Of a stretch of DNA of 45,917 bases, positions 27,439 through 45,917 are shown piece by piece (within the stretch, counting starts at the first letter, position 1; every line of letters begins with the position of its first letter). This stretch comes from Stellaceae bacterium. GTDB taxonomy: Bacteria; Pseudomonadota; Alphaproteobacteria; ATCC43930; CGMCC-115725. Under the pieces are notes generated by a model that was given only the letters and a program-made list of their open reading frames with translations, did no database searches and had not been told where the DNA came from. Both the position numbers and the translations under genes were made by a program. Location: positions 1 to 45,917 of the forward strand of contig DATJUL010000274.1 in NCBI GenBank assembly GCA_035502295.1. Direction: 5' to 3'.

Positions 27439-28092
27439 TCATGACGCCGCGGCCAGGTTCCGGGTCAGTAAGTCGACCTTGCGGTTCAATGCCATGATCA
27501 AACCGTCAGCGCCTTCGCGCTGAAGGATCGAATGAAATTCCGACCGTTGCGTCGCGAGCTGGCTGATCGAGCCGTCGAGGTATACGTCGGCGATTTGCCA
27601 ACAGCTCCCGTTTTGGCGCATCCGGTAATTGAGGTTCACCGTATCCCCTGTTGACTTGACGATCCTGGTTTGGACGATCACCTCCGTCGCGTAGGGCTGC
27701 TCGCCGATGACCTGCAGCTGCTCGCCCGAATAGCTGTCGAACCGGTCAGCATAGGTCGCCGCGATGTAGTGTCCGAAAGCCTCAGTCACCTGCTGCTGTT
27801 GGGCCGGAGAAAGCGTGGCCCAGGACGGGCCCACCGCGAGCCGGGCCATCAGGGAAATGTCGAATAACCTCATCACCACTGGCGCCAGCCTTGCATACCG
27901 GCCGCTTTGTCCAAGGGTCGGACCGCCCTTCATCGTGGTTAGCAAGGTATCGTAAAAGCTGTGCACGCTGTCCTCCGGGCTCAGGGACAGTGCCGCGGTA
28001 GACTCCGCGGACATCGCAAATGTCAGCAATAAAGATAGGCCCATGCCCGCGACCTTATGCGCTTGAAGAGATGGCCTGATTGGCTTGCTCAT
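27439..28092 (-). CDS. MlaC/Ttg2D-family periplasmic lipid-binding protein (orphan, no MlaDEF nearby)
   Basis: 217-aa ORF with a signal peptide. The regions ..LAPVVMRLFDISLMARLAVGPSWATLSPAQQQQVTEAF.. and ..YRMRQNGSCWQIADVYLDGSISQLATQRSEF are typical of the Ttg2D/MlaC fold family. Confidence 0.72.
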   Translation of the reverse strand: MSKPIRPSLQAHKVAGMGLSLLLTFAMSAESTAALSLSPEDSVHSFYDTLLTTMKGGPTLGQSGRYARLAPVVMRLFDISLMARLAVGPSWATLSPAQQQQVTEAFGHYIAATYADRFDSYSGEQLQVIGEQPYATEVIVQTRIVKSTGDTVNLNYRMRQNGSCWQIADVYLDGSISQLATQRSEFHSILQREGADGLIMALNRKVDLLTRNLAAAS

Positions 28093-28161: not shown

Positions 28162-29163
28162 TCACCAACCCGAATGGTCTGGCAGCGCATTCGGCGCCGC
28201 CTTGCACTCATGCTGGCCGAAGGAAGGCGCCTTGTTCAGCGCGCCGTCGGTCCAGGCGGCCGCTGCCCACCCGCCCTCGACGATCGGCGAGTCGATCAGC
28301 AGCCGTCCTTGCCAAGGAGCGACTGCGTGAGCATGGTCGCAGCCCAGGTCACTGCCGGTGTCCGGCCGATCCAAGGGCTCGGATTTCCGGGCCGGGCTCC
28401 AGCGCGTGCTCAACGCCGGAATCTTGACCGTAAGGACAGAGCCGCGCCCTTCGGCAGAACGAACTTCGATGCGATGCCCAAGGAGATCGGCAGCGCGCTT
28501 CGCAATGGAGAAACCCAGTTCGAGACCGTCGGCTCGGCTCTCGTCGGCTCTCTCAGAGGCGCCGAAGATTGTGGACAACGCTTTGGGGCGTATGCCGATA
28601 CCCGTGTCTCGGACATAGATGCACAGCTCCGGGTCGCGTCGGTGGGAGCTGACGAACACGGAACCGTCGGGAGGCGTGTAGTCGATCGCGTTCCGTATCA
28701 GGTTTCTGAGGATGCTGGCGAGCAACAGAGGGTGACTTAAAGCGGCGCCCCCCGTGCACGCAACCCGGAACGTGATCCCCTTGCGGCGCGCCGGTTCGTC
28801 GAACTCTGCGGTCAAATCATCAAGAATGGGCCTCACCAGGACAGGACGTCTGAAGCCTTCGCGTGGTCGCTCGTACAGCTGCAGAGCCCCTACAAGCTGG
28901 CCCAGCATTCTGGCCAGTTGCGCCGTCACATTCGCGGCCTGCACCAGCTGTCGCTGCTGCTTCCCGGACAGGCGCAAGGTCGCGAGGCCATCATGGACGT
29001 CGGTAATCAGCTGCAGCGGCTGGCGTAGATCATGGCCGGCCATTGCCACCATCCTTGCGAGAAAAGCGCTATCCGCCGGCGCTGAGGGCAGGCTGACCGG
29101 CTTGCCGATCTTCGAGGTTTTCTGATTGGCATGCGGAACGCTGGGATTGGTGAACTCGGTCAT
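28162..29163 (-). CDS. histidine kinase core (HisKA + HATPase_c) without a recognisable sensor or TM domain
   Basis: Starts MTEFTNPS. H-box MVAMAGHDLRQPLQ lies only about 35 aa from the N-terminus. N-box LRNLIRNAIDYT, G1 VRDTGIGI and G2 GLELGFSIAKR are present. The C-terminal ~90 aa are non-kinase (see relic). Confidence 0.85.
   Translation of the reverse strand: MTEFTNPSVPHANQKTSKIGKPVSLPSAPADSAFLARMVAMAGHDLRQPLQLITDVHDGLATLRLSGKQQRQLVQAANVTAQLARMLGQLVGALQLYERPREGFRRPVLVRPILDDLTAEFDEPARRKGITFRVACTGGAALSHPLLLASILRNLIRNAIDYTPPDGSVFVSSHRRDPELCIYVRDTGIGIRPKALSTIFGASERADESRADGLELGFSIAKRAADLLGHRIEVRSAEGRGSVLTVKIPALSTRWSPARKSEPLDRPDTGSDLGCDHAHAVAPWQGRLLIDSPIVEGGWAAAAWTDGALNKAPSFGQHECKAAPNALPDHSGW
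28165..28305 (-). pseudogene. relic of a second family III CoA-transferase gene, now read as the 3' tail of the histidine kinase ORF (approximate bounds)
   Basis: The HK tail SPIVEGGWAAAAWTDGALNKAPSFGQHECKAAPNAL aligns with residues SLIAEGAWAAAAWIEGALNKAHFFGQHDRKAPPNAL of the intact transferase (around 26480-26600). Nucleotide similarity is visible in the same orientation. Confidence 0.5.
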
Positions 29164-29384
29164 CGGCGTCTCTCGTTGTTCCGGCTCCTGCCTCCGGGGA
29201 GGCGACACGGCTCGAGCTTTTGAGTGGGTTCCGAAATTGCGATCGGTCGCCGGGCAGGTCGTCCCGCCGCCGTCAAAGCTAGGCAGCGATGTCTGGCGTT
29301 TCTTTGGGCGCGACGCGAAATAACCTGGAAAATTCGTACGCAGCCCGCTTGGTCTGTCGCGGGCGAAGCATTTCCTGGAAAAAT

Positions 29385-29413
29385 CTGAAATTTCCTGACG
29401 CGCACGCTATAGT
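29385..29413 (+). promoter_or_regulatory. candidate sigma70-type promoter giving a leaderless or near-leaderless transcript for the first STAND regulator
   Basis: CTGAAA (29385-29390), a 17-nt spacer, then TATAGT (29408-29413). The ATG at 29421 is 7 nt downstream and has no Shine-Dalgarno. Prediction by eye only. Confidence 0.3.
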
Positions 29414-29420
29414 GCAAGCG

Positions 29421-32291
29421 ATGGGCCCCGCCTCCGAAGCCTCAGCGGGCGTCGCGTTTGGGCGTTTCCGCGTGTTCCCGCACCGCCGTGAGCTGCTTGC
29501 CGACGGCCGGCCGGTGAAGCTCGGCGGGCGTGCCTTCGACGTGCTGATGGCGCTGATCGAGGCGCGCGGTGCCGTTCTCGGCAAGGATGCGCTGATGGCG
29601 CGCGTTTGGCCCGATCGGGTTGTCGAGGAAAACAATCTACAATCCCAGATCGTGGCCTTGCGCAGAGTCTTCGGCGCGGAGCGCGAGTTGATCCGCACCG
29701 TTTCCGGACGGGGTTACCAGTTCACCGGTGACGCCCGTATCCTACGACAGCTTGCGGACGATCACGTTCGTGCCGCGCTGGTTCCTGCGCAGCTGGGTTC
29801 GACACTGCCGCTGACCAACCTGCCGCACGCGGTTTCCGCGCTGATCGGCCGGGACGAGGAGCTCGGCGAGATCCTGAACTTGGCCGCTGCGCACCGGCTC
29901 GTCACGCTGACGGGCGCCGGCGGCATCGGCAAGACACGGCTTGCCCTTGCATTGGCTCGCGAGCTGCTGCCGCATTTTGCCGACGGGGTCTGGGTCGCCG
30001 AGTTGTCGTCGCTCGCCGATCCCGGGCTGGTTCCCGCCACGGTCGCCGCCGCAGTCGGGCTGGAGCTCGGGGGCCGCGAGGCTTCGCCGCAGCGTGTGGC
30101 GCAGGCGCTCGCCGCGAAGCGGCTGTTGGTGGTCTTCGACACTTGTGAGCATGTGATCGCCGCCGCGAGCGCGCTGGCCGAGGCCGTGTTGCGGGCCGGT
30201 TCGGCGGCGTGCATCATCGCGACCAGTCGCGAATCCCTCCGGGCAGAGGGCGAGTGGATCTATCCGTTGCCGCCGCTCACCGTGCCGGCGGAAGATCCCG
30301 CGGAAGCGGACGATCCGCAGCGCTACGCCGCGGTTCGCCTGTTCCTCGATAGGGCGCGGGCGGCGGAACCGCGTTTTGCGCCGGACCGGCACGCTATCTC
30401 GACGATCGCGGCAATCTGCCGGCGGCTCGACGGGATCCCGCTGGCTATTGAGCTGGCGGCGGCGCGGGCCGCTGCGCTCGGCATCGAGGAGCTTGCCGCC
30501 CGACTCGGCGATCGCTTCCGGCTGCTTACCGGCGGCCGGCGTACGGCGCTGCCGCGGCACCAGACGTTGCGGGCGACGCACGATTGGAGCTACGAGCTGC
30601 TGCTCGAGCCCGAACGGGTGATCCTGCGCCACCTGGCGGTCTTCGCCGGCGCTTTCAGCCTGGAGGCGGCCGGCGCGATCGCACCCGGCGCCGATTTCTC
30701 ACAGTCGGAGGTCGTCGACAGCCTCTCTAGCCTAATCGCGAAATCGCTCGTTGCGGCTGAGACCGGCACCACAATCGCGCGCTATCGCTTGCTCGACACG
30801 ACACGGGCCTACGCGCTCGAAAAGCTTGCCGAAAGCGGCAAGGCTAATGCGATCTGGCGACGCCATGCCGAATACTATCGAGACTTGCTCCAAGCCGCCG
30901 CCGACGATAAGGCGGCCATTGACGACTGGCCTGCCGTGTACGCGGCCGAGATCGACAACATTCGTGCGGCGTTGGCGTGGGCCTTCGGCTCCGGGGGCGA
31001 TGCGTCGATCGGCGTGGCGCTGGCCGCGGCTTCGGTTCCGATCTGGCTTGAGACTTCGCTACTCGGCGAGTGCCGCGGCTGGATGGAGGCAGCGATAGCC
31101 GGCCTCGATGACGCTGCGGCTTTAGCAACGCGCGACGAGATGGTGCTGCAGTGTGCCTTTGGCTACTCGCTCGTCGATACTCAGGGTTGGAGCGATAAGG
31201 CGCGCGCGGCGCTGCTAAGAGCCAGCGAGCTTGCAGATAGCTTTCAGGACATCGACTATCAAGTGCGAACACTTGCCGGTCTGGCTATTCTTTGCACTCG
31301 AGCCGAAGACTACCAGGCTGCCCTTACTCTCGGTCGCCGAGCCGAGGCGATTATCGCGGGTTCTGTCGACCCGATCGCTGTTTCGATAGCGGACTGGATG
31401 CTCGGTGTCGCGCTTCATTTGCTGGGCGATTATGCCGAGGCGTTGGCCCACGCCCAGCGCGCAACCGACACAACTGCTGCATCTTTCGTGCGACGAAGCC
31501 ATATCGTGCGCCTGGGGAGGGACAGTTTCATTTTGTCCCGTGGCACTGTGGCGCTCATTCTTTGGGCGCAGGGCCTGCCCGACCAATCGGCCCAAACCGC
31601 GCGGGAAGCTCTGGCCGATGCCGAGGTCGGGGAATCTTCTCTGTCGCGATGTCTCGCGCTGACTTGGTGCGGATGCGTGGTTTCGCTCTGGCTCGGGGAT
31701 ATCGAGACCGCCGAACGTTCGACTGCTTTGCTGAAAGATCTGGCTGGGAAATACGACTTGAGCAGCTACTATGCTTATAGTCTCTGCTTTGAAGGTCAGC
31801 TGTCCGCCAGACGCGGCGATGTCGCGGACGCCGAACGGATGCTTCGCGCGGGTCTCGCTGGATTGCGCCGTGCCCAATCTGAGGGCCACTATACAGCATT
31901 CCTCGGCGACCTGGCCGAGATTCTGATGATGTCGGGTCAGCTCGGCGAGAGCCTCGCCGCAGCCGACGAGGCGCTACAGCGGACCGAACGCAGCAATGCG
32001 CTCTGGTGGATGCCCGAAGCGCTTCGCATCAAGGGCGAAGTCCTACTCGTGTGCAATGGCGATGGAGGCGCGGCGGAAGACCATTTCCTCCGATCGCTGG
32101 ACCTGGCACATCGGCAGGGGGCTCTGTCCTGGGAGTTACGCGCTGCCGCGAGCCTAGCTCGGCTGCTGCGTAGTCAGGGCCGTTCCGCGGATGCGATAGC
32201 TTTACTCCAGCCGGTCTACGACCGGTTCACCGAGGGGTTCGAGACGGCCGATCTCAAAGCCGCAAAAGCGCTTCTCGGCGCTCTGCGATAG
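29421..32291 (+). CDS. winged-helix (OmpR/CadC-type) - NB-ARC/STAND P-loop NTPase - TPR transcriptional regulator, paralogue 1
   Basis: 956 aa from MGPASEASAGVAFGRFRV. wHTH FGRFRVFPHRRELLADGRPVKLGGRAFDVLMALIE...IRTVSGRGYQF. Walker A GAGGIGKTRLA, Walker B-like LLVVFDTCEHV, and a GIPLAIELAAAR motif. The C-terminal half is helical-repeat and ends YDRFTEGFETADLKAAKALL. The ORF track starts at 29289, but paralogues 2 and 3 begin at the equivalent Met. Confidence 0.88.
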   Translation: MGPASEASAGVAFGRFRVFPHRRELLADGRPVKLGGRAFDVLMALIEARGAVLGKDALMARVWPDRVVEENNLQSQIVALRRVFGAERELIRTVSGRGYQFTGDARILRQLADDHVRAALVPAQLGSTLPLTNLPHAVSALIGRDEELGEILNLAAAHRLVTLTGAGGIGKTRLALALARELLPHFADGVWVAELSSLADPGLVPATVAAAVGLELGGREASPQRVAQALAAKRLLVVFDTCEHVIAAASALAEAVLRAGSAACIIATSRESLRAEGEWIYPLPPLTVPAEDPAEADDPQRYAAVRLFLDRARAAEPRFAPDRHAISTIAAICRRLDGIPLAIELAAARAAALGIEELAARLGDRFRLLTGGRRTALPRHQTLRATHDWSYELLLEPERVILRHLAVFAGAFSLEAAGAIAPGADFSQSEVVDSLSSLIAKSLVAAETGTTIARYRLLDTTRAYALEKLAESGKANAIWRRHAEYYRDLLQAAADDKAAIDDWPAVYAAEIDNIRAALAWAFGSGGDASIGVALAAASVPIWLETSLLGECRGWMEAAIAGLDDAAALATRDEMVLQCAFGYSLVDTQGWSDKARAALLRASELADSFQDIDYQVRTLAGLAILCTRAEDYQAALTLGRRAEAIIAGSVDPIAVSIADWMLGVALHLLGDYAEALAHAQRATDTTAASFVRRSHIVRLGRDSFILSRGTVALILWAQGLPDQSAQTAREALADAEVGESSLSRCLALTWCGCVVSLWLGDIETAERSTALLKDLAGKYDLSSYYAYSLCFEGQLSARRGDVADAERMLRAGLAGLRRAQSEGHYTAFLGDLAEILMMSGQLGESLAAADEALQRTERSNALWWMPEALRIKGEVLLVCNGDGGAAEDHFLRSLDLAHRQGALSWELRAAASLARLLRSQGRSADAIALLQPVYDRFTEGFETADLKAAKALLGALR

Positions 32292-32360
32292 CTCGACGCC
32301 TGGCGGCAATGTTCTCGCCGGAGACCGCGGAATGACGGCGAAAGCGAAATCGGGCAATCG

Positions 32361-35231
32361 ATGAATTCGGCTTCCGAAGCACCGGCAGCCGTCGTGTTTG
32401 GGCGTTTCCGCGTGTTGCCGCAGCGCCGCGAGCTGATCGCCGACGGCGAGCCTGTCAAGCTCGGCGGCCGCGCATTTGACGTGCTGATGGCGCTGATCGA
32501 GGCGCGCGGCGCGATCGTCTCCAAGCATGCACTGATGGCGCGCGTGTGGCCCGGCCGGATCGTAGAAGAAAACACGCTGCAATCCCAGATTGTGGCGTTG
32601 CGCCGCGTGTTGGGGGCGGACCGCGACCTGATCCGTACGGTCTCCGGGCGGGGCTACCAGTTCACCGGCGAGATCTGGACCGTGTCGGCAAGCGCCGACG
32701 AAGAAGCCAGCGACGCAGCGGCGACGTCCGAGACGACATCGCAGCCGTCGAACTTGCCGCTATCGGTCTCCGAACTGATCGGCCGGGACGGCGAGTTGAG
32801 CGAGATCCTGGGCCTCGCCGCCGCGCATCGGCTCGTCACGCTGACCGGCGCCGGCGGCATCGGCAAGACGCGCCTCGCCCTCGCGGCGGCGCACCGGCTG
32901 CTGCCACAATTTCCCGACGGGGTCTGGGTCGCCGAACTGGCGCCGCTCGCGGAACCCGGCTTCGTTCCCGCTGCCGTTGCGGCGGCGATCGGGCTCGATC
33001 TCACCGCCGGCGCAGTCTCACCCGAACGGGTCGCGAATTCGCTGAGGGAGAGACAGCTGCTGCTCGTGCTCGACAATTGCGAGCATGTGATCGCTTCCGC
33101 GGCGATGATGGCCGAGGCATTGATGCGCGTGAATCCGGCGGCGCATGTCATCGCCACGAGCCGCGAGCCGCTCAAGGCCGACGGGGAATGGATCTATTCA
33201 GTGCCGCCGCTCGCCGTGCCGCCAGGAGATGCCGAGGCAGCGCACGACCCGCTACGGTACGGCGCCATTCAACTGTTCGTGGAAAGGGCGCGGGCCGCGG
33301 AGCCGCACTTTGCACCCGACCCCCGCCGAATGGCGATCATCGCGGCGATCTGCCGACGGCTCGACGGCATCCCGCTGGCGATCGAGCTGGCGGCGACGCG
33401 CGCCGCTGCGCTCGGCATCGAGGCGCTTGCCGCCCGCCTCGACGATCGCTTCCAGCTGCTGACCGGCGGGCGGCGGATGGCATTGCCGCGGCACCAGACG
33501 TTGCGGGCGACGCTCGACTGGAGCTACGAGCTGCTCTCCGAGCCCGAACGCGTCATCCTGCGCCGCCTGGCGGTTTTCGTCGGCGCCTTCAGCCTGGAGG
33601 CAGCCAGCGCGGTCACGGCGAGCCCCGAGATCACGCAACCGGAGGTCGTCGACTACCTTTCCAGTCTGGTCGCGAAATCGCTCGTCGGTACCGAGATCGA
33701 CGGTGCCGTCACGCGCTACCGCTTACTCGACACGACGCGGGCCTACGCACTCGAAAAACTGGGCGATAGCGGCGAGCTGCAAGTGGTCGCGCGACGCCAC
33801 GCCCACTACTGCCGCGATCTATTTGAGCGGGCCGAAACCGAATCGGAGGTGCAGCCCGTAACCGAATGGCTTTCCGGTTACGGACGCGAGATCGACAATC
33901 TGCGCGCGGCGGTCGATTGGGCTTTATCGCCAGACGGTGACGCGTCGATCGGCGTCGCCTTAACGGCCGCCGCGGTGCCCCTATGGATGCAATTATCGCT
34001 GCTGGAGGAGTGCCGCGGCAATGTAGAGCGAGCGCTCGCCGCCGTCGAAACCGGCGGCCATCGGCATCCACGCCGGGAAATGAAGCTCCACGCCGCATTG
34101 GGTTCATCGCTGGCGTCTTCCAGGGGAACGGTTCCTGAAATCGCCGCAGCTTGGTCGAAGGCGCTCGAGATTGCGCAGAGCCTTGACGATGCTGGGTACC
34201 AATTACGTTCGCTTTGGGGGCTGTGGCTGTTTCACAGCACCAGCAGTCAGCATCGCGCCGCTCTGGCGCTGGCGCAAAGATTCAGCAGCGTGGCGGCGCA
34301 GAGCCACGACCCGAATGATCGGCTGGTTGGTGAGGGAATGCTCGGCGTCTCGCGACATTTCTTGGGCGATCAGTCCACTGCGCGGCACCACATCGAGCGC
34401 ATGCTTAGCAGCTATCTTGTCCCCAATGAGCGGCTGCACATAATTCGCTTCCAGACCGACCAGCGGGTGGTGGGGCGCGCCTTCCTAACGCGGATCCTAT
34501 GGCTGGAGGGATACGCGGATCAGGCGATGCGCGCCGTCCGCACCGGCGTCGAAGCGGCGCGCGCTACCGACCATGCCGTGTCGCTGTGTTACTTTTTGGT
34601 GCGGGCGGCATGCCCGATCGCGCTTTTGGTCGGCGATTTGGCCGCGGCTGAAATTTACGTAGAAATGCTGCTCGACCACTCGAAAAGGCATGCGCTGGCG
34701 CTTTGGCACGCGTTTGGCCGCAGCTATCAGGGTGTGCTCATAATCCGCCGCGGGGATACTGCCGCAGGATTGCGGGTGCTGCATGCCGGCCTGAATGAAC
34801 TCGGCAACGCCAAGTACGCGGCCTTGCGGCTTGTCAGCTTCTTTGTTGCGGGAGCCTTGGCTCGTGCCGGGCAGATCATCGACGGGTTGACCATAATCGA
34901 GGAGGCGGTCGCTCGCTCTCAGGCCACCGAAGAGCGCTGGCTGATCGCCGAATTGCTGCGCCTGAAAGGCGACCTTCTTTTGTTGCAGGGCGCGCTAGAA
35001 ACCGCGGCCGAGGCCGAAATTCTTTTCCGGCAGGCGCTCGACTGGGCGCGCCGGCAAGGCGCGCTGTCCTGGGAACTGCGCGGCGCCACGAGCCTCGCGC
35101 GGCTGCTTCGCGATCGAGGCCGTTCCGCCGAGGCGACGGCGCTCCTCCAGCCGGTCTACGACCGGTTTACCGAGGGATTCGACACGGCCGATCTCAAAGC
35201 CGCAAAGGCGCTGCTCGACGCTCTTCGATAG
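32361..35231 (+). CDS. winged-helix - NB-ARC/STAND NTPase - TPR transcriptional regulator, paralogue 2
   Basis: 956-aa ORF with the same architecture: GAGGIGKTRLA, LLLVLDNCEHV, GIPLAIELAATR and a C-terminal YDRFTEGFDTADLKAAKALL. Confidence 0.9.
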   Translation: MNSASEAPAAVVFGRFRVLPQRRELIADGEPVKLGGRAFDVLMALIEARGAIVSKHALMARVWPGRIVEENTLQSQIVALRRVLGADRDLIRTVSGRGYQFTGEIWTVSASADEEASDAAATSETTSQPSNLPLSVSELIGRDGELSEILGLAAAHRLVTLTGAGGIGKTRLALAAAHRLLPQFPDGVWVAELAPLAEPGFVPAAVAAAIGLDLTAGAVSPERVANSLRERQLLLVLDNCEHVIASAAMMAEALMRVNPAAHVIATSREPLKADGEWIYSVPPLAVPPGDAEAAHDPLRYGAIQLFVERARAAEPHFAPDPRRMAIIAAICRRLDGIPLAIELAATRAAALGIEALAARLDDRFQLLTGGRRMALPRHQTLRATLDWSYELLSEPERVILRRLAVFVGAFSLEAASAVTASPEITQPEVVDYLSSLVAKSLVGTEIDGAVTRYRLLDTTRAYALEKLGDSGELQVVARRHAHYCRDLFERAETESEVQPVTEWLSGYGREIDNLRAAVDWALSPDGDASIGVALTAAAVPLWMQLSLLEECRGNVERALAAVETGGHRHPRREMKLHAALGSSLASSRGTVPEIAAAWSKALEIAQSLDDAGYQLRSLWGLWLFHSTSSQHRAALALAQRFSSVAAQSHDPNDRLVGEGMLGVSRHFLGDQSTARHHIERMLSSYLVPNERLHIIRFQTDQRVVGRAFLTRILWLEGYADQAMRAVRTGVEAARATDHAVSLCYFLVRAACPIALLVGDLAAAEIYVEMLLDHSKRHALALWHAFGRSYQGVLIIRRGDTAAGLRVLHAGLNELGNAKYAALRLVSFFVAGALARAGQIIDGLTIIEEAVARSQATEERWLIAELLRLKGDLLLLQGALETAAEAEILFRQALDWARRQGALSWELRGATSLARLLRDRGRSAEATALLQPVYDRFTEGFDTADLKAAKALLDALR

Positions 35232-35315
35232 TCGGCTGCCGCCGCAAGTTGTTGGCAACGTTTTTTTCTGGAGACGAATGGTGGCGAAGGCAAAATCGGT
35301 TTGTGACGGTGATCG

Positions 35316-38195
35316 ATGAATTCGGTTTCCGAACCACCTTCGGCCACAGCTTTCGGGCGTTTCCTCCTGTCGCCGCAGCGCCGCGAACTGCTCGCCAACG
35401 GCCGGCCGCTGAAGCTCGGTGGCCGCGCCTTTGACGTGCTGCTGGCGCTGCTCGAGGCTCGCGGCGCCGTCGTCTCCAAGGACGCGCTGATGGCGCGCGT
35501 CTGGCCCGACCGGATCGTCGAGGAAAACGCGCTGCAATCCCAGATCTCGGCGTTGCGCGCTGCGTTGGGCGCCGACCGCGAGTTGATCCGCACGGTGTCC
35601 GGGCGCGGATATCAGTTCACCGGCGGGATCCGCGTTCTGCCGGCCATTTCCGATGAGCGCGCCGGCGCCGGTATGGCAATGACCGAGCGCAAAGCGACGC
35701 CTCCGCCGACAAACTTGCCGCAGCCGGTTTCCGAGCTGATCGGTCGGGACGAGGAGCTTGCCGAGGTCCTGAACCTCGTCGCCGCACATCGGCTCGTCAC
35801 GCTGACCGGCGCCGGCGGCATCGGCAAGACCCGGCTTGCCCTCGCGCTAGGACGCGAGCTGCTGTCGCATTTTTCCGATGGGGCCTGGGTCGCCGAACTG
35901 GCATCGCTGTCTGATCCCGACCTTGTCCCGGTGACTGTCGCAGCCGCGCTCGGGCTCGAATTCACGGCGGGTACGGTATCGCCCTTGGCCGTTGCAAATG
36001 CCCTCCGCTCAAAGCAGCTCGTTCTGGTGCTAGACAATTGCGAGCATGTGATCGACGCGGCAGCGTCGATGGCCGAGGCATTGTTGCGCGCCAGCCTGGC
36101 GGTACGCGTGATCGCGACCAGCCGCGAGCCGCTCCGAGCAGAGGGCGAGTGGCTTTACCCGGTACCGCCGCTCGCTGTTCCCACCGAAGGTGGCCCGGAC
36201 GGCGAGGACCCGCTTCGCTACGGTGCCGTCCGGCTGTTTGTCGAACGAGCACGCGCGGGCGCGCCACATTTTTCGCCTGGCGCGCGCGCTGCGGCCGCGA
36301 TCGGCCGAATTTGTCGTCGCCTGGACGGTATCCCGCTGGCAATTGAGCTTGCGGTGGCGCGGGTAGCGACCCTTGGGGTAGAGGGCCTTGCGGCCGGACT
36401 CGACGACCGTTTCCGCCTCCTCGCGGGGGGCCGCAGGACCGCACTGCCGCGGCACCAGACCTTGCGGGCGACGCTCGACTGGAGCTACGAGCTGCTCACC
36501 GAGGCCGAACGCGAGATCCTGCGTCGTCTGGCGGTCTTTGCCGGCGCCTTCAGCCTGGAAGCGGCGGACGCGGTCGTGGCGAGCCTCCAAATCGCGTCGT
36601 CTGATGTCCTTAACGGCCTTTCCGATCTGGTTGCGAAATCGCTCGTCGCGATGGAGGTCGACGGCACCATCGCGCGTTACCGGCTGCTCGACACGACGCG
36701 GGGCTACGCGCTCGAAAAGCTCGGCGAGAGCGGCGAGCTTGAAGCGGCCGCGCGCCGCCACGCCGAATATTACCGCGGTGTTTTCGCACGGGCCGAAGCC
36801 GAGTGGGAGACGCGACTCATAGCCGAATGGCTGGCCGATTATGGCTCGAAGATCGACAATTTGCGGTCGGCGCTCGACTGGGCTTTTTCGCCGGGCGGCG
36901 ATCCGCCGATTGGGGTGGCGCTGACGGCTGCCGCAGTGCCCCTATGGATGCACCTGTCCCTGATGGAGGAATGCCGCAGCCGCGTCGAGCGGGCGCTTTC
37001 CGCTGTCGAGCGCGGGGCCAGCCCGGACGCGCGCCGTGAGATGCAGCTCCAAATCGCATTGGGCACAACTCTTGTAAATACGACGGCTGTGACCAGCCCC
37101 GAGGTCGGCGGAGCCTGGACGAAGGCCCTCGAGCTCGCCGAGAGCCTTGACGATGCCGAGTACCAGTTGCGCTCGCTCCGGGGCCTGTGGACCTTTAACC
37201 TAAACGGCGGTCGGCATCGCGTTGCTCTGGCACTGGCGCAACGGTTTTGTACTCTGGCTGCGGACCGGACCGACCCGAACGACCGGCTGCTCGGCGAGCG
37301 CATGATCGGCGTCGCACAGTTTTACCTGGGCGATCAAGAGAACGCGCGTCGCCATATCGAACGCGTGCTCGCCGGTAGCGGCACTCCTGACGCCGGGTCA
37401 CACATCATTCGCTTTCAACTTGACCTGCGGGTGGCGGCGCGCACGTTCCTTGCGTGGATTTTGTGGCTGCAAGGATTTCCGGATCGGGCGATGCGTGCAG
37501 CCGAAAGCACCTTCGAGGACGCTCGGGCGACCGATCACGCACTCTCAATTTGTTACGCTCTGGCCCGGGCGACATTCCCGATCGCCTTGCTGGTCGGCGA
37601 TCTGGCCGCTGCGGAACATTATGTCAGGGTGCTGATCGATTATTCGACAAGGCACGCACTGGGGCACTGGCAGGCCATTGGCCGCTGCCATCAGGGAGCG
37701 CTCGCTATCAAGCGCAGCGATGTCGTCACCGGATTGCGGCTGCTGCGCGCCGGATTGGGCGAACTCGGCGAAGCCAGGTCCCCAGTCTTGCGTCTGATCG
37801 GGTTCCTGATGGGAGAAGCGTTGAGCCGTGCGGGGCAGATCGTCGACGGGCTTGCCGCGGTCGAGGAGGCGCTCGCATGGACCGAACGCAGCGAAGAACG
37901 CTGGGCGATTGCCGAGTTGCTGCGGAGCAAGGGCGAGCTTCTGCTGTTGCAGGGCGCGCCCGGAGCCGTGGCGGTGGCCGGGGAGCATTTCGGGGAAGCC
38001 CTCGAGTGGGCCCGTCGGCAAGGCGCGCTCGCCTGGGAACTGCGCGCCGGCACGAGCCTCGCCCGGCTGCTTTGCGATCAGGGGCGTTCCGCCGATGCGA
38101 AGGCGCTCCTCCAGCCTGTCTATGACCGGTTCACCGAGGGGTTCGACACGGCCGATCTCAAAGCCGCAAAAGCGCTTCTCGGCGCGCTCGTATAG
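35316..38195 (+). CDS. winged-helix - NB-ARC/STAND NTPase - TPR transcriptional regulator, paralogue 3
   Basis: 959-aa ORF with the same architecture: GAGGIGKTRLA, LVLVLDNCEHV, GIPLAIELAVAR and a C-terminal YDRFTEGFDTADLKAAKALL. Confidence 0.9.
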   Translation: MNSVSEPPSATAFGRFLLSPQRRELLANGRPLKLGGRAFDVLLALLEARGAVVSKDALMARVWPDRIVEENALQSQISALRAALGADRELIRTVSGRGYQFTGGIRVLPAISDERAGAGMAMTERKATPPPTNLPQPVSELIGRDEELAEVLNLVAAHRLVTLTGAGGIGKTRLALALGRELLSHFSDGAWVAELASLSDPDLVPVTVAAALGLEFTAGTVSPLAVANALRSKQLVLVLDNCEHVIDAAASMAEALLRASLAVRVIATSREPLRAEGEWLYPVPPLAVPTEGGPDGEDPLRYGAVRLFVERARAGAPHFSPGARAAAAIGRICRRLDGIPLAIELAVARVATLGVEGLAAGLDDRFRLLAGGRRTALPRHQTLRATLDWSYELLTEAEREILRRLAVFAGAFSLEAADAVVASLQIASSDVLNGLSDLVAKSLVAMEVDGTIARYRLLDTTRGYALEKLGESGELEAAARRHAEYYRGVFARAEAEWETRLIAEWLADYGSKIDNLRSALDWAFSPGGDPPIGVALTAAAVPLWMHLSLMEECRSRVERALSAVERGASPDARREMQLQIALGTTLVNTTAVTSPEVGGAWTKALELAESLDDAEYQLRSLRGLWTFNLNGGRHRVALALAQRFCTLAADRTDPNDRLLGERMIGVAQFYLGDQENARRHIERVLAGSGTPDAGSHIIRFQLDLRVAARTFLAWILWLQGFPDRAMRAAESTFEDARATDHALSICYALARATFPIALLVGDLAAAEHYVRVLIDYSTRHALGHWQAIGRCHQGALAIKRSDVVTGLRLLRAGLGELGEARSPVLRLIGFLMGEALSRAGQIVDGLAAVEEALAWTERSEERWAIAELLRSKGELLLLQGAPGAVAVAGEHFGEALEWARRQGALAWELRAGTSLARLLCDQGRSADAKALLQPVYDRFTEGFDTADLKAAKALLGALV

Positions 38196-38199
38196 GAGG

Positions 38200-38217
38200 C
38201 CGCTGCTCACGCAGCGG
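38200..38217 (+). terminator. candidate stem-loop terminator after paralogue 3
   Basis: ccgctgc-tcac-gcagcgg (7-bp stem, 4-nt loop) begins 5 nt after the TAG stop. The U-tract is weak (..ggttctt..). Confidence 0.3.
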
Positions 38218-38573
38218 ACGCGCGGTTCTTGACCCGCAATGCCCCGCGACTGGTCTTGCCGGCCAGCCGCAGGTGTTTCTTCGGCGAGCAATTTGCGGCG
38301 GGAGCGAACTACTTCTGCCGCCGCGCTTTGGGGTTAGTGGCGCTTTTCGGTTACTCGCCTGGCCAATTTTTACGCTCGTGTCCCATTGCTAGCCGTCTCT
38401 TGGGGGATGCGAGAAAAGCGAACGGCGGAGCCGCGCCTCCGGCAATGCCGGTGAGGGGACTTGCCGGGGCAGCCCCGGCCCATCATTCTTCGCGGGCCGA
38501 GCGGCTGATCCCCCTGACGGGGGATCGGTGAAATGAGTGCCATAATGGCACTCGATGGTTTCCGGGAGGTTTC

Positions 38574-41324
38574 ATGTCGCCGGTTGGCGTGGACCACATG
38601 ATTGCCGGCAAACAGCCACAGCTCCTTGCCACCAAAATCCTGCCGCCACGCGGTTCGGCGGGGCTGATCGACCGGCCCCGGTTGGTGGGCCTGACCGCCC
38701 AACTGCAGGAGAAGCAGCTCACCGTGATCAAGGCGGCTGCCGGGTTTGGCAAGACGTCTCTCGCGCTCGCCTGGGCGGATGATCTTCGGCAGAGCGGGAA
38801 CTCGGTCGCATGGCTTGCCCTCGACCCCGACGACAACGAGCCGACCCGATTTCTCTTCTATGTGGCCCACGCGTTGCGGCGCGGCTGCAACGGCGTCGGC
38901 GAAGCGGTCATCAGCCAGATCTCCGAATTTTTCTTCTTAGTACCGGTAAATACGATCGTTGCCACTTTGATCAACGAGCTGGCCGACAGCGAAGATGAAA
39001 TCTATTTGTTCCTGGACGACTATCACTGGGTAACCCATCGTGAAATACATGACGCCTTGTCGTTCTTGCTGCAACATGCCCCGAGCCAATTTCATCTCGT
39101 GCTGACCACGCGCACGGAGCCGCCTCTCCCTCTGGCTCGACTACGCGCCCAAAACCGGTTTTTGGAGATCGACCCGGCGGCACTGCGCTTTGACCTGGAC
39201 GAGACGCGTCGCTTTCTCGAACACGCGAATCTCGGCACGCTGGAGCCGTCCGATATCAGGCTGTTGTGCGCGAAGACCGAGGGTTGGCCCGCGGTCCTTC
39301 GGATCATCGCTTCCACCTCCTCGCAGTCGGGACAAGATTTCGAGCAGTACGTGCACGCGCTGTCCAGCGCGCTACGCCCAATCGGCGCCTATCTCGACGA
39401 GATGCTCGACATCCTTCCGCGTAACATGATCGAGTTCATGATGCGGAGCGCCATCCTCGACCGCCTTTGCGCCCCCCTATGCCAAGCGGTGACGGGCACG
39501 GGGTCGGACCGGAATGTGCTGGAATCGATAGAGGTGCGCCAGTTGCTGCTGGTTCCCCTCGATCAGGAACGGCGATGGTACCGCTATCACCCGCTGCTGG
39601 GTGGTCATCTCCGGCAAAGGCTCGATGCTCAACTCAATGACGAAATTCCCGAACTGCATCGGCGCGCGTACCGCTGGTACGCCTCCCAAGAGTTGTGGAC
39701 GGATGCGGTCCAGCACGCGATAGCGGCAGGTGACACGGACCTGGCCATCAGCTGGATCGAGAGCTGCGCCATGGCTCTGGTCAAGAAGGGCGATTTGCTG
39801 ACCCTGCTCGGCTGGCAGCGATTGTTTCCGACTGAATTGATCCGCAGCCAGATCAGGGTCAGGCTTGCGATCGCCTGGGGACTGGCGCTCGCAATGCGGT
39901 TCGAGGAATCGCTGCAGCTACTGGCAAATATCGAACACGACAATGACGGCGGTGATACACAGGAGGTAGAGGTTCTCAGATACGAATGCCAGACTATACG
40001 CGCGGTTGTAGCCGCTTTGAGCGACGACACCCGGACAGCGCTGCCTCTCGCCGAAGCCTGTTTCCGGCAGCCGCCGACGGATCCTTGGACTACCAATGTC
40101 GCTTCGAACGTAGCCCGCTTATGTCACTGGAAGGCGGACGATCTAAAAAGTTTTTATGCGACGCCATGGATACCTTACTCCGATGAGGAGGACAGATGGA
40201 ACGTCTTCTCATCGATCTATCGGCTCTGTTTCCAAGGTTTGGTCGAGTTCCAGCAGCTTCGGGTCGCCGCGGCGGAAGGCTATTACCTCGACGCCATGCG
40301 GCTGGCGGAACAGCATGTCGGGCCGAACTCGGTAGCGGCAGCCTTGCCCGCAAGCCTAATCGCCGAGATACGTTATGAACAGGGCCGGTTGGACGAAGCG
40401 GAAGCCTGTGTTGTCGACCGGATCCCGATCATTATCGCCACCGCAATGCTGGAATGCGTATCGCGGACGTTCATCGTATTGGCGCGAATTGCTGCTCGCC
40501 GCAATAACATTCGGCGAGCCTACGCGCTGTTGCAACAAGCGGAGAATTTAGGCGACACGCGCAAATGGGGTCGGTTGGTCGCCGGCGCTCTGTTGGAACG
40601 GCTCAGGTTCAATCTCGCGGAAGGTCGAACCGGCGAGGCCAGCGCATGCCTAGATCGCCTCGAGCGGATTGCAGCCGAATATCCGACCCCGATACGTTGC
40701 GCCTGGTCCGAAATCCATTACTACACCGCGCTCGCGCGCGCTCATATGGCCCAGGCCGAAAATCGTCTCTGGGATGCGGCTGCCATCTTTGCAGAGCTGC
40801 ACCGGGAGGCCGAAGTCACCCACAATGATTACCTGGCACTGCGCACCGGTGCGCAGCTGGTCGCGGTTTTGCTCGGTGCGAACCAGCCAGCCGAAGCCGC
40901 GAATGCGTTTCGCAGGCTCCTTAGCGCGGCTGCACCGGCCGCGATCTATCAGACTATTCTGGATCAGGGCCCGGCGATCGGCACGATGTTGATGCGCTTT
41001 GAGGAGAAAGCCAAACGCACCGGTATTCCCCAAGAGCTCCTACCCTACCTCGACAGTCTCATTGCACGCGGGCGCGACCGCTACCAATGCGGACTGGCGT
41101 CGAGCCCGTCAGCGGTGATCCCCGAGTCGGTGAGCGCTCGCGAACGTAATGTTCTCGAGTTGATTGGGCAAGGCCAGTCCAACAAAGAAATCGCCCGAGA
41201 GCTCGGCATTACACCCGAGACGGTTAAATCTCACGTCAAGAGCATTTTTGCGAAGCTCGCGGTGCAACGGCGTGCGCAGGCGCTCTCTCGCGCCCAGAGC
41301 CTCGGGCTGATCCGGATGCAATAG
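38574..41324 (+). CDS. MalT-like LuxR-family STAND transcriptional regulator (P-loop NTPase + helical repeats + C-terminal LuxR/GerE HTH)
   Basis: 916-aa ORF. N-terminus LATKILPPRGSAGLIDRPRL, Walker A AAAGFGKTSLA, Walker B IYLFLDDYHWV. The C-terminal SARERNVLELIGQGQSNKEIARELGITPETVKSHVKSIFAKL is the LuxR HTH. GGGAGG SD 5 nt upstream of the ATG. Confidence 0.9.
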   Translation: MSPVGVDHMIAGKQPQLLATKILPPRGSAGLIDRPRLVGLTAQLQEKQLTVIKAAAGFGKTSLALAWADDLRQSGNSVAWLALDPDDNEPTRFLFYVAHALRRGCNGVGEAVISQISEFFFLVPVNTIVATLINELADSEDEIYLFLDDYHWVTHREIHDALSFLLQHAPSQFHLVLTTRTEPPLPLARLRAQNRFLEIDPAALRFDLDETRRFLEHANLGTLEPSDIRLLCAKTEGWPAVLRIIASTSSQSGQDFEQYVHALSSALRPIGAYLDEMLDILPRNMIEFMMRSAILDRLCAPLCQAVTGTGSDRNVLESIEVRQLLLVPLDQERRWYRYHPLLGGHLRQRLDAQLNDEIPELHRRAYRWYASQELWTDAVQHAIAAGDTDLAISWIESCAMALVKKGDLLTLLGWQRLFPTELIRSQIRVRLAIAWGLALAMRFEESLQLLANIEHDNDGGDTQEVEVLRYECQTIRAVVAALSDDTRTALPLAEACFRQPPTDPWTTNVASNVARLCHWKADDLKSFYATPWIPYSDEEDRWNVFSSIYRLCFQGLVEFQQLRVAAAEGYYLDAMRLAEQHVGPNSVAAALPASLIAEIRYEQGRLDEAEACVVDRIPIIIATAMLECVSRTFIVLARIAARRNNIRRAYALLQQAENLGDTRKWGRLVAGALLERLRFNLAEGRTGEASACLDRLERIAAEYPTPIRCAWSEIHYYTALARAHMAQAENRLWDAAAIFAELHREAEVTHNDYLALRTGAQLVAVLLGANQPAEAANAFRRLLSAAAPAAIYQTILDQGPAIGTMLMRFEEKAKRTGIPQELLPYLDSLIARGRDRYQCGLASSPSAVIPESVSARERNVLELIGQGQSNKEIARELGITPETVKSHVKSIFAKLAVQRRAQALSRAQSLGLIRMQ

Positions 41325-41550: not shown

Positions 41551-42489
41551 TCACGCGCCGCCCTCGGTGAAGCGCCACACCGGAATGCCGAACCGCCGGG
41601 CCTTGTCGGCGAGGTTGTCCTGGATGCCGGTGCCGGGGAAGACGATGACGCCGATCGGCATCGCGTCGAGCATCTGGTCGTTGCGTTTGAACGGGGCAGC
41701 CTTGGCGTGCCGGGTCCAGTCGGGCTTGAAGGCGATCTGCGTCACCTCGCGGCTGTCGGCCCAGTAGGCGGCGATGCGCTCGGCACCCTTCGGCGAGCCG
41801 CCGTGCAGCAGCACTATGTCGGGGTGCTTGACATGGACCTTGTCGAGCGTGTCCCAGATCGCGCGGTGGTCGTTGCAGTCGAGCCCGCCGGTGAAGGCGA
41901 TCCTGGGGCCGACGGGGAGCAGCACCTCGTTGTCGGCGCGGCGTTTGGCGGCGATGAAATCGCGGCTGTCGATCATCGCCGCGGTCAGGGTGCGGTGATT
42001 GACAAGCGATCCCGAGCGCGGCCGCCATGCCGAGCCGGTGTGGCGTTCGAACTGTTCGGCGGCCTGGTCGCGGAAGAACTCCATCGCATTGCGGCGCTCG
42101 ATGAGAGTCAGGCCTTGTGCGGTCAGGCGCTCGAGCTCGACCGATCGGATCTCGGAGCCGTCCTGCTCTTTCTGGCTCTTCCGCTGTGCCTGCTCGTTGT
42201 CGTCGAGCGAGCGTTCGATGCGGCCGACGGTGCGGTGGAAGAGGTTGACCGCCGACCACATCAGGTCTTCGAGGTCGGGTTCGAGGCGAGTGTCGGCGAG
42301 GGTGGCGACGAGGGCGTCGAAGATGTCGGCGACGGCGCCGCCGACGGCGTTGGCTTCGGGCAGTGGTCGCGGGTCGGGCTCGTCCTCGAACGGGTGGTAG
42401 CCGTAGAGCTGCAGCTCGGCGAGGACGTGGTCGGTCGGAGAGGAGGTGTGCGCTTCGTCGAGGTCGAGGTCGTCGCGATCGGTCGTCAT
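41551..42489 (-). CDS. DUF2493 (SLOG-like) domain protein typical of conjugative/integrative elements
   Basis: Starts MTTDRDD inside the 323-aa ORF. The C-terminal IAFTGGLDCNDHRAIWDTLDKVHVKHPDIVLLHGGSPKGAERIAAYWA...FKRNDQML matches my recollection of DUF2493 proteins, which sit next to Toprim and strawberry-notch genes in alphaproteobacterial ICEs. Confidence 0.78.
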   Translation of the reverse strand: MTTDRDDLDLDEAHTSSPTDHVLAELQLYGYHPFEDEPDPRPLPEANAVGGAVADIFDALVATLADTRLEPDLEDLMWSAVNLFHRTVGRIERSLDDNEQAQRKSQKEQDGSEIRSVELERLTAQGLTLIERRNAMEFFRDQAAEQFERHTGSAWRPRSGSLVNHRTLTAAMIDSRDFIAAKRRADNEVLLPVGPRIAFTGGLDCNDHRAIWDTLDKVHVKHPDIVLLHGGSPKGAERIAAYWADSREVTQIAFKPDWTRHAKAAPFKRNDQMLDAMPIGVIVFPGTGIQDNLADKARRFGIPVWRFTEGGA

Positions 42490-42857
42490 CGTGATGTCCC
42501 TTGCCGGATCGGCCGCGCCCATCGCGGCCTTCAGGCGGTCACCAGGCGGTGGGCGGGGCGGGCCGGCACCGCCGAGCGCAGCGACGGCGGCCGGAGCAGC
42601 GCGGAGGACAGCGGTCCCGCTTTCTTGTCTCGCGAGGAATGCCGGCGATCCGGGGTCCCCGCCACGCTTACGTGGCGGGGTGGTGGCGGCAGGGGAAGAA
42701 AGCAGAAGGACCGCCGTTGCCGGCCCGGCGCGTCTGCCGTCCGATCGCCATCTCGAAGGCCGGGCGCCGGCCTCTACGGCAAGAGTGCGTCAACGGCGAT
42801 CCGATGTGACGGCCGACCTTCGGAGAGGCTGAAGCCTCATTCCGTTCACGGCCTCGG

Positions 42858-43889: not shown

Positions 43890-43896
43890 CGCCGTC

Positions 43897-45435: not shown

Positions 45436-45652
45436 CGCCTGTGACTACGCTTGTCCTGATCCGGCCACGCAGGTTGCTTCCCGATGCCGCCCTTTCCCGG
45501 AGAGCCTGAAGCGAAATCAATTCGAGCTCACCGATTTCATAGCTCGTGCCATTGATCCGAGAGCAGAGTCTCCCGCTCGTGACTTCAAGCCGGGCACGGG
45601 TTTCCTCGTAACCGTCTTCTCGAAACCCGGTGAGCGTTTCGAACCAATCCAT
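45436..45652 (-). pseudogene. N-terminal ~70 codons of an unidentified conserved protein, truncated at the junction with sbno
   Basis: MDWFETLTGFREDGYEETRARLEVTSGRLCSRINGTSYEIGELELISLQALRERAASG..VVTGDVRRM looks like genuine coding sequence. Beyond about 45440 the ORF (45128..45652) merely reads the sbno gene out of frame. Confidence 0.4.
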
Positions 45653-45813
45653 CGGCGACCCCCTTTTCTCAGCACGCTGTCGAGCGAAGACTGAGGACGT
45701 ACTCTTCTTGCTCGGATGTCCTCTCGGTCCTCAGCTCCCAGGACTGGGTACGGCCGCCTGGCAGCACAGCAGCGTGCGACACCACCAGCCGCTTCAGCGC
45801 TTCCCATTCCGAG

Positions 45814-45917
45814 ATGGCGCCCGCGCGAGGGCCGGTGCTCCTCAAGGTCAATTACGGCGGCGACCTCAACCTCACCCAGCTGGCACACGGCACCGGTGTT
45901 CTCGACGAGCGCTACGC
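45814..45917 (+). CDS. possible 5' end of an unidentified gene running off the right edge
   Basis: The plus frame MAPARGPVLLKVNYGGDLNLTQLAHGTGVLDERY.. has strongly G/C-biased third positions, unlike the antisense frames. There is no clear SD and I recognised no family. Confidence 0.25.
   Translation, partial: MAPARGPVLLKVNYGGDLNLTQLAHGTGVLDERY

Follow-up and report, generated by a model that had tools for sequence, protein, structure and literature searches.

A tandem array of three STAND-type winged-helix regulators with a common recognition helix and divergent sensors in an alphaproteobacterial contig

Why would a soil bacterium keep, head to tail, three long regulatory proteins that are closely alike at one end and differ widely toward the other? 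The question is raised by contig DATJUL010000274.1 (assembly GCA_035502295.1), a stretch of 45,917 nucleotides (nt) that was analyzed in full and is referred to below as the window (64% GC). Metagenome-assembled genome (MAG) contigs matching the window carry the label Stellaceae bacterium (Alphaproteobacteria, Rhodospirillales). Four long open reading frames (ORFs) on the same strand occupy positions 29421-41324. The first three, copies 1 to 3, encode paralogues that combine an N-terminal winged helix-turn-helix (wHTH), an NTPase of the STAND class (signal transduction ATPases with numerous domains) and a C-terminal half resembling tetratricopeptide repeats (TPR). We propose, with a probability of about 0.7, that copies 1 to 3 are paralogous one-component signal-transducing transcription regulators, acting as ligand-gated, ATP-dependent oligomerizing activators, and that they belong to a large alphaproteobacterial family. 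The four ORFs are as follows.

29421..32291, + strand: copy 1, 956 amino acids (aa); wHTH, STAND NTPase and type-A helical/TPR sensor
32361..35231, + strand: copy 2, 956 aa; wHTH, STAND NTPase and helical solenoid
35316..38195, + strand: copy 3, 959 aa; architecture of copies 1 and 2 with a type-B sensor
38574..41324, + strand: gene 4, 916 aa; MalT-like STAND/LuxR regulator

The copy 1 ORF ends at 32291 and offers alternative starts at 29289 and 29421; the latter, which gives 956 aa, was retained because the N termini of homologues align there and because a conserved promoter falls inside the longer ORF. The array recurs in two independent assemblies, being identical in an ENA contig (L004) and 98% identical in a Stellaceae MAG contig (L001). 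L-numbers designate related database contigs or loci compared with the window, and the letters a and b the family genes within one locus.

Three paralogues of one architecture

ORF analysis, Pfam searches and structure prediction agreed that copies 1 to 3 are consecutive, intact paralogues made of a wHTH without a receiver domain, a STAND NTPase and a TPR-like half, as a preliminary description of the array had read them. Pfam model Trans_reg_C (PF00486) matched residues 29-101 of copies 1, 2 and 3 with 52.2, 62.4 and 60.1 bits, respectively, for a gathering score of 26.2 bits, and the wHTH, which begins at about residue 10, matched the PDB sequences of the DNA-binding domains of OmpR, PhoB and CadC. 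All three copies share the recognition helix (EENxLQSQIxALR) and the wing (RTVSGRGYQFTG). Pfam revealed no match to Response_reg, the receiver domain, and none to BTAD (E ≤ 0.01), so that the three proteins do not qualify as Streptomyces antibiotic regulatory proteins (SARPs); the NCBIfam model of AfsR gave 33.5 bits for a cut-off of 1430. Precomputed Pfam annotation lists HTH_77 (PF25872) for homologues. The Walker A (GAGGIGKTRLA), Walker B (hhhh(F/L)D(T/N)CEH) and GIPLAIELA motifs quoted in the preliminary description were present in all three copies. In an alignment of 76 homologues, including distant ones, the Walker A (GxGGxGKT), Walker B (hhhhD) and GxP motifs and those of the winged-helix domain (WHD) were nearly invariant. 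TPR_12 scored 60 bits in copy 1 and weakly in copies 2 and 3.

An AlphaFold2 (AF2) model of copy 2, computed from 76 homologues, had a mean predicted local distance difference test score (pLDDT) of 85.7 and contained the following parts.

aa 10-108: wHTH
aa 111-126: linker
aa 143-280: nucleotide-binding domain (NBD)
aa 301-368: helical domain
aa 376-470: WHD
aa 473-955: uninterrupted helical solenoid

The NBD, helical domain and WHD form an NB-ARC-like nucleotide-binding oligomerization domain (NOD), which is separated from the wHTH by a linker of about 30 residues that is of low pLDDT, or disordered, in the model. The best PDB matches found by Foldseek were a STAND-TPR crystal structure (6mfv; E 1.7e-10), Apaf-1, CED-4 and a wheat resistosome, and matches for the sensor solenoid included TPR proteins and domain III of MalT. 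The family profile also matched the NOD of AfsR (E 2e-10). The STAND fold, which structure prediction had been expected to confirm, was thus borne out by the copy 2 model and Foldseek.

Relatives of these proteins are abundant. An exhaustive search of 1.84 billion cluster representatives (50%-identity clusters) retrieved 64,245 relatives at E ≤ 1e-30, and most of the best 150 were collinear over essentially the full length. A word-indexed search gave at least 7,999 relatives at E ≤ 1e-10, the best 120 being essentially all full-length matches with 61-71% identity. JGI names such proteins 'predicted ATPase/DNA-binding winged helix-turn-helix protein'. PLSDB contains 539 records of plasmids or chromids with a relative, mainly from Sinorhizobium and Rhizobium, at up to 6-7 places per record (for example, RL_RS30425 on pRL11 of R. 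johnstonii 3841), and the copies on rhizobial replicons sit among ordinary metabolic genes. The survey of related genomes suggested in the preliminary description revealed that copy number varies. A single copy is present in L005, L009, L014, L017, L024, L025, L030, L031 and L048 and a tandem pair in L006, L007/L008 and L010; L020 has three or more copies, and in L002 a major facilitator superfamily (MFS) gene lies between two. Among the loci examined whose flanks were adequate, roughly one in two contains a tandem pair or triple. Literature searches found no ligand, regulon or biochemical study of any family member, returning work on AfsR and SARPs and one in-silico description, and we found no characterized close orthologue of copies 1 to 3. 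The earlier decision to leave the array unassigned to any characterized regulon stands. Copies 1 to 3 are ordinary members of a very large family that is already annotated, and their layout is typical of it.

Conserved output halves and exchanged sensors

Comparison of the three copies revealed a mosaic, with identity that is not uniform along the genes.

wHTH: copies 1 and 2, 80%; copies 1 and 3, 74%; copies 2 and 3, 78%
Linker: copies 1 and 2, 25%; copies 1 and 3, 33%; copies 2 and 3, 39%
NOD: copies 1 and 2, 69%; copies 1 and 3, 69%; copies 2 and 3, 70%
Sensor: copies 1 and 2, 31-41%; copies 1 and 3, 38-40%; copies 2 and 3, 61%
Last ~60 aa: 83-87% in every pair

The weak similarity of the copy 1 sensor and the roughly 60% identity of the copy 2 and 3 sensors given in the preliminary description were reproduced by these measurements (31-41% and 61%). 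For the wHTH of copies 1 and 2, the strong conservation was recovered, but the figure of about 84% was not, since aa 1-105 gave 80% and aa 31-90 gave 83%. Conservation rises again in the C-terminal tail (...LLQPVYDRFTEGFDTADLKAAKALL), which is nearly invariant across the family and occupies the following positions.

32106-32288, + strand: conserved tail of copy 1
35046-35228, + strand: conserved tail of copy 2
38010..38192, + strand: conserved tail of copy 3

The number of synonymous substitutions per site (dS) between copies was 0.76-1.0 overall, and the longest identical nucleotide run was 44 nt. The copies are therefore old paralogues: the paralogy behind the proposed tandem triplication is real, but the triplication is not recent, and copy 1 has a different type of sensor. 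Recent gene conversion within the array was rejected on the same grounds, with no long conversion tracts detected. The best foreign full-length homologues were about 70% identical to copy 2, and copy 3 was only 67% identical to it, among the matches listed. Copies 1 to 3 are under purifying selection, with ratios of nonsynonymous to synonymous substitution (dN/dS) of 0.19-0.55 in each domain-length segment of the copy pairs. Positive selection on the sensors was rejected at this resolution; comparisons with copy 1 are saturated at synonymous sites and are thus uninformative for selection on sensors.

The clearest trace of how the sensors came to differ was found in copy 2.

33801..35045, + strand: copy 2 sensor cassette that passed between lineages (aa ~481-895); nucleotide match to L002a

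The gene L002a comes from a different alphaproteobacterial MAG, in which it sits on a contig of 228 kb. Within the cassette, 1180 of 1237 nt are identical to the L002a sensor (95.4%). Outside it, identity falls to 57% of nucleotides (48% of aa) in the upstream, N-terminal half and to 76% of nucleotides in the downstream tail, so that the conserved tail is the 3' boundary of the exchanged segment. Values of dS between copy 2 and L002a were 0.117 in the cassette, 1.29 in the N-terminal half and 1.06 in the C-terminal tail. The sole other gene common to the two loci, which encodes a FUSC-family efflux protein, is 82% identical in nucleotides with a dS of 0.65. A dS of 0.117, for values of 0.65-1.29 elsewhere, indicates that the cassette dates from well after the two lineages separated. 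Its dN/dS of 0.22 is that of a segment under purifying selection since the exchange. The sequences suggest that L002a is the likely recipient, because its N-terminal half groups with that of its neighbor L002b (67%). An assembly chimera was rejected as the source of the mosaic, since L001 and L004 contain copy 2 in the same form and the L002 contig is 228 kb long. The exchange rests on one pair of genes, the copy 2 side of which is replicated in L001 and L004. A metagenome scan for the copy 2 cassette returned nothing above 66% identity. Since a search with the copy 2 sensor alone listed neither the copy 2 protein nor L002a, the number of cassette carriers could not be counted; a search with the copy 1 sensor likewise did not list copy 1.

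The converse pattern occurs in L006, in which the tandem neighbors L006a and L006b are 99-100% identical over nt 77-1280 (wHTH plus NOD, ~1.2 kb) with sensors that are about 65% identical. On the sequence evidence, the output half of this pair is homogenized by gene conversion, a process to which the N-terminal halves of tandem neighbors can be subject.

The sensor of copy 1 (aa 482-885) has 36-39% identity with its counterparts in copies 2 and 3; with those of the 120 closest copy 2 relatives listed, the value is 34-41%. Over the same residues, the copy 1 sensor is 45-63% identical (≤66% by BLASTP) to a separate subgroup of wHTH-STAND proteins, the type-A subgroup. The NOD of copy 1 is about 70-75% identical to both groups. 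Copy 1 is not simply a diverged copy, because its nearest sensor relatives sit in other wHTH-STAND genes, and these identities make it best read as a type-A-sensor member on the common chassis; since synonymous sites are saturated, its status as a true chimera cannot be proven. Acquisition of the copy 1 sensor from an effector-less family was considered and dropped, the relatives without a wHTH being frameshifted full-length genes in long-read assemblies. Family genes of long-read MAGs are split by frameshifts at L009:5571-8415 and L010:5331-8193, where gene callers report wHTH-less 'predicted ATPases'; effector-less architectures are therefore overcounted in databases.

Taken together, the alignments argue that the family evolves modularly, as recombination between genes exchanges sensor cassettes that lie between the conserved WHD and the conserved C-terminal tail. 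The preliminary description had likened the array to an expansion of nucleotide-binding leucine-rich repeat receptors (NLRs). The idea of one output coupled to several sensors was borne out by the common recognition helix and by cassette exchange, but diversifying selection was not (dN/dS 0.19-0.55).

Promoter, candidate operator and mode of action

Two overlapping elements were predicted upstream of copy 1.

29385..29413, + strand: sigma-70-like promoter CTGAAA-17-TATAGT, predicted by promoter scan
29374..29399, + strand: candidate operator that overlaps the -35 region; YCTGRA occurs three times with a 10-nt period (29374, 29384 and 29394)

The predicted -10 box ends 7 nt before the ATG of copy 1 at 29421, so that the copy 1 mRNA is probably leaderless. 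A fourth, distal YCTGRA copy lies at 29324-29335, 50 nt upstream of the three repeats. The layout consisting of the repeats, TATAAT, 7-9 nt and the ATG is also found 5' of family genes in L006, L007, L010 and L030. The SARP-type OmpR domain of AfsR binds direct repeats 11 or 22 bp apart near the -10 element (PMC10936776). Because domains of this type bind spaced direct repeats, the repeats upstream of copy 1 were read as a candidate operator, to which, by analogy, the winged helices of the family may bind. The operator reading is supported by conservation of the layout across loci and not by the statistics of the single pattern, CTGRAA-N4-CTGNAA-N4-CTG, which is unique in the window even at 2 mismatches. 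A sigma-54 promoter reading of the CTGG motif was rejected by eye, since the spacing does not fit. Scanning for further operators with a position weight matrix (PWM) returned, beyond the family's own promoters, weak matches in AT-rich regions, which are leads only. The best operator-like PWM match outside the training set (23.8 bits) was L024:506-560, with the TATAGT-7 nt-ATG layout; it precedes a small ORF without a Pfam match, 1.5 kb upstream of the L024 family regulator.

Copies 1 and 2 are separated by 70 nt and copies 2 and 3 by 85 nt. Since these gaps contain no terminator-like site, co-transcription of the three copies is plausible. The common recognition helix implies that they probably act on the same type of operator in response to different signals. 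As the only such candidate operator in the window is that of the copy 1 promoter, autoregulation of the three genes is suggested, and the real targets would lie in other parts of the genome.

The proposed mode of action is modelled on MalT, AfsR and the PH0952-type STAND-TPR structure. The wHTH of the OmpR/CadC type would be the output, the NOD would be the ADP/ATP switch and oligomerization module and the C-terminal TPR-like solenoid would be the sensor. With no signal present, each protein would be a closed, autoinhibited, ADP-bound monomer. Binding of a ligand or partner to the sensor would free the NOD, allowing ADP to be exchanged for ATP and oligomers to form. The clustered winged helices would then bind cooperatively to the 10-bp-spaced direct repeats at the -35 region and activate transcription. 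Fold, motifs, sequence conservation and the common recognition helix with divergent sensors come directly from the analysis; the dynamic steps are inferred.

Several points weigh against this proposal. Profile searches had been expected to find Trans_reg_C, P-loop and, in gene 4, GerE domains; Trans_reg_C and GerE were recovered, but the P-loop families (AAA_16, AAA_22, NB-ARC, nSTAND1/3) matched copies 1 to 3 weakly, with copies 1 and 2 below the gathering score and copy 3 alone above a cut-off (AAA_16, 33.1 bits). The MHD/HD histidine is typical of NB-ARC NLRs and not of every STAND protein. Copies 1 to 3 have a leucine at that position (RYRLLDTTR versus RYRFHDLVR in AfsR); this leucine (L455/L456) is nearly invariant across the family, which retains the aspartate and does not have the histidine expected of NB-ARC. 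In AfsR, the HD-motif histidine functions as an activation switch (bioRxiv 10.64898/2026.09.02.748808), and its replacement by leucine means that the nucleotide switch of copies 1 to 3 may work differently. At the promoter, 23 of 100 shuffles gave at least one match to the repeat pattern, a lone occurrence of which is not statistically exceptional, and the repeats could be a conserved promoter or UP element instead of an operator. Copies 2 and 3 have no promoter of the copy 1 type upstream, and their operon structure is assumed. Finally, ATP binding, oligomerization, DNA binding, ligands and targets of copies 1 to 3 are all inferred.

The weak P-loop scores and the loss of the MHD histidine would also suit DNA-binding scaffolds with a degenerate NTPase, in which the helical region mediates protein-protein interactions, as in wHTH-TPR regulators of the HilA type, and the copies are largely redundant; NCBIfam models indeed relate the N terminus of copies 1 to 3 to HilA/EilA (E 1e-12 to 1e-14). 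We regard such scaffolds as unlikely, since near invariance of the Walker A and B, GxP and WHD motifs in distant homologues is unexpected for a dead NTPase and the sensors are too different for redundancy. The STAND assignment is sound despite the weak sequence-profile scores because of the fold matches and the profile match to the AfsR NOD.

The arrangement of the genes also bears on whether the copies act singly or together. The tandem copies might form a hetero-oligomeric unit, like paired or networked NLRs, that applies AND/OR logic across signals at one operator. Such a unit would account for the recurrence of tandem pairs and triples across the family, for N-terminal halves that are kept alike (to the point of homogenization by gene conversion in L006, with sensors at ~65%) and for the identical recognition helices of the three window copies; the three-repeat candidate operator would suit a multimer, and copies 2 and 3 are without a promoter of their own of the copy 1 type. 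We nevertheless consider it improbable, since about half of the adequately flanked loci are single copy and the N-terminal halves of the window copies are only about 69% identical, with no obvious shared interfaces for co-assembly. Nor do we know of a STAND transcription factor for which hetero-oligomers have been directly demonstrated, which counts against this view. A broader version, to which we likewise give little credence, is that the family performs combinatorial, recombination-driven sensing, with tandem paralogues co-assembling on a three-repeat operator and cassettes swapping through homology arms provided by the WHD and the tail. If true, bacteria would have a counterpart of NLR sensor diversification outside immunity, one that gives soil bacteria plug-and-play ligand inputs on one transcriptional output. 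Independent ligand-gated activators of common architecture remain our preferred interpretation of copies 1 to 3.

Flanking genes and relation to known systems

Gene 4 had been counted as the last member of an array of four. It does follow in the same orientation and is a MalT/LuxR-type regulator, but it has no detectable similarity to copies 1 to 3 (E 2.4) and no equivalent of it is adjacent to the related arrays in L002 and L005-L010. It was therefore juxtaposed and not duplicated. Pfam models TPR_MalT (73 bits) and GerE (64 bits) matched it above their cut-offs, and NCBIfam MalT (PRK04841) matched it end to end (17-910 on 2-896; E 2e-116). Since the latter score, 390 bits, is below the 537-bit equivalog cut-off, gene 4 is MalT-like, or of the type of large ATP-binding LuxR-family (LAL) regulators, and not a MalT orthologue. 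It contains Walker A (AAAGFGKTS) and Walker B (LFLDDYH) motifs and a C-terminal GerE HTH, and its GC content (~0.60) is below that of the window. We regard gene 4 as a separate MalT-type regulator whose position beside the array, at the edge of a region resembling a conjugative element, is coincidental. The 379-nt spacer between copy 3 and gene 4 (window 38195-38574) contains short inverted repeats (38295-38324 and 38535-38553), as well as a direct repeat of 17 nt in tandem at 38323-38356. Rfam gave no match in this spacer, and the Rfam search was otherwise also empty.

The preliminary description placed the array between a sensor-less histidine kinase and a mobile-element remnant, and both flanks were confirmed in kind, with a kinase limited to dimerization/histidine phosphotransfer (DHp) and catalytic domains on the left and genes of the conjugative-element type on the right.

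27439-28092, - strand: MlaC-like gene; hopanoid-associated HpnM model TIGR03481, 189 bits for a cut-off of 160
28162-29163, - strand: histidine kinase of 333-348 aa with DHp and catalytic domains only, divergent from copy 1
41551-42522, - strand: YspA/SLOG protein gene of the conjugative-element type
42858-43973, - strand: DUF7146 plus Toprim protein gene, resembling the TraI C terminus
43897-45435, - strand: gene for a Strawberry-notch-type helicase C-terminal domain, of the conjugative-element type

The conjugative-element-type region extends over 41551-45917 (- strand), and the window ends inside it; no att repeat was found at this region and no tRNA in the window. Also to the left of the array lie genes for a CoA-transferase, an acyl-CoA dehydrogenase and an enoyl-CoA hydratase. 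The kinase is most similar to the C-terminal core of the NahK/ErcS type, without a sensor domain, and no response regulator lies nearby. At several other arrays a stand-alone Trans_reg_C gene of about 190 aa is divergent from the first family gene (L006:9390-9673(-), L007:716-1288(-), L008:617-1189(-) and L031:3004-3300(-)); in the window, the core-only kinase fills that position. An MlaC-family gene is also present upstream of the L006 tandem pair. No conserved neighbor pointed to a regulon for the window copies. On two independent contigs, a family regulator lies beside an operon for a MIP (aquaporin) protein and catalase (L005:13025-16300 and L015:1718-4210), with an HD-domain gene also present in L005. 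In the region upstream of this operon, a weak motif resembling the operator (TCTAAAATTTYC...) is accompanied by a conserved block downstream. For this group of orthologues, the regulator and the MIP-catalase operon are a possible regulator-target pair, perhaps in a peroxide response.

The nearby conjugative-element genes, combined with the STAND-plus-TPR architecture and with sensors that are diversified and horizontally exchanged, are features that would be expected if the array were a conflict or anti-phage system of the NLR kind (resembling Avs or bNACHT) at a mobile-element edge, with TPR sensors that recognize invader proteins. We find this highly unlikely. PADLOC-DB models did not match copies 1 to 3 (E ≤ 0.01) and matched gene 4 through its LuxR HTH only. 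The effector is a winged-helix DNA-binding domain, with no nuclease, protease or pore, and purifying selection prevails throughout. The family also occurs in multiple copies among ordinary metabolic genes in rhizobial replicons, as well as in L002 and L005-L007, and the MalT-like gene separates the array from the mobile-element genes. These observations are in better agreement with transcription regulators as proposed above.

Taken alone, the window is ordinary, since it contains paralogous regulators of a common type, with cassette exchange as a clean natural example. What it newly contributes is this exchange, the common recognition helix, the additional conservation of the C-terminal tail and the candidate operator in a leaderless promoter. 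Among the uncharacterized groups of bacterial transcription regulators, the family ranks with the larger ones, and some rhizobial plasmid or chromid records contain several copies per replicon. Experimental handles are provided by the recognition helix, the candidate operator and the natural chimeras, which mark swap points at aa ~481 and ~895 and could guide the engineering of chimeric sensors.

Among known systems, AfsR of Streptomyces coelicolor, a 'large' SARP (PDB 8k60/8jke), is like copies 1 to 3 in combining an OmpR-type wHTH, an NB-ARC-type NOD and an arm/TPR sensor, and the family profile aligns to its residues 261-612 (E 2e-10). AfsR is autoinhibited by its C-terminal NOD and TPR domains and is activated by ATP (PMC10936776). 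It differs by the BTAD present between wHTH and NOD, where copies 1 to 3 have the disordered linker of ~30 residues, and by the HD switch histidine, which is a leucine in copies 1 to 3. AfsR is moreover actinobacterial and copies 1 to 3 are proteobacterial, the similarity being visible only with a profile. A second point of comparison is MalT, in which a STAND NTPase and a helical-repeat sensor control a DNA-binding domain via ligand- and ATP-dependent oligomerization. MalT of E. coli and the LAL regulators have these two parts in common with copies 1 to 3, and MalT domain III structurally matches the copy 2 sensor; unlike copies 1 to 3, with their N-terminal wHTH, MalT has a C-terminal LuxR/GerE HTH. 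PDB structure 6mfv displays the arrangement of NOD and TPR sensor seen in the copy 2 model (702 aligned columns, E 1.7e-10), with a sequence identity of 14%, low global TM-scores of 0.29/0.38 and an uncertain relative orientation of domains in the model.

For PSPPH_2539 of Pseudomonas syringae pv. phaseolicola, from the cluster of a type III secretion system (T3SS-2), an in-silico description (PMC3574062) gives a DNA-binding domain of the PhoB type, a COG3903 ATPase and TPRs at the C terminus. This is the three-part architecture of copies 1 to 3, likened by description only; PSPPH_2539 is itself a prediction, and the window lacks its type III secretion context. Plant and fungal NLR clusters resemble the array, by analogy only, in their tandem layout, conserved NOD, variable sensor repeats and reshuffling of sensors by recombination. 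They differ in that copies 1 to 3 have no positive-selection signal, a proposed output that is transcription and not cell death, and sensors that are not highly repetitive internally. A last comparison is with TOMM (thiazole/oxazole-modified microcin) kinase/cyclase fusions (TIGR03903) and cyclase-ATPase-TPR proteins. The C-terminal 560 residues of TIGR03903 align to aa ~316-914 of copies 1 to 3 (E 1e-14 to 7e-24), a part that begins with the helical domain and so takes in the second half of the NOD, together with the sensor and most of the tail. These proteins have a kinase/cyclase output instead of a wHTH, and copies 1 to 3 score 51-84 bits for a family cut-off of 706. The alignment indicates that the same chassis is used with other output domains.

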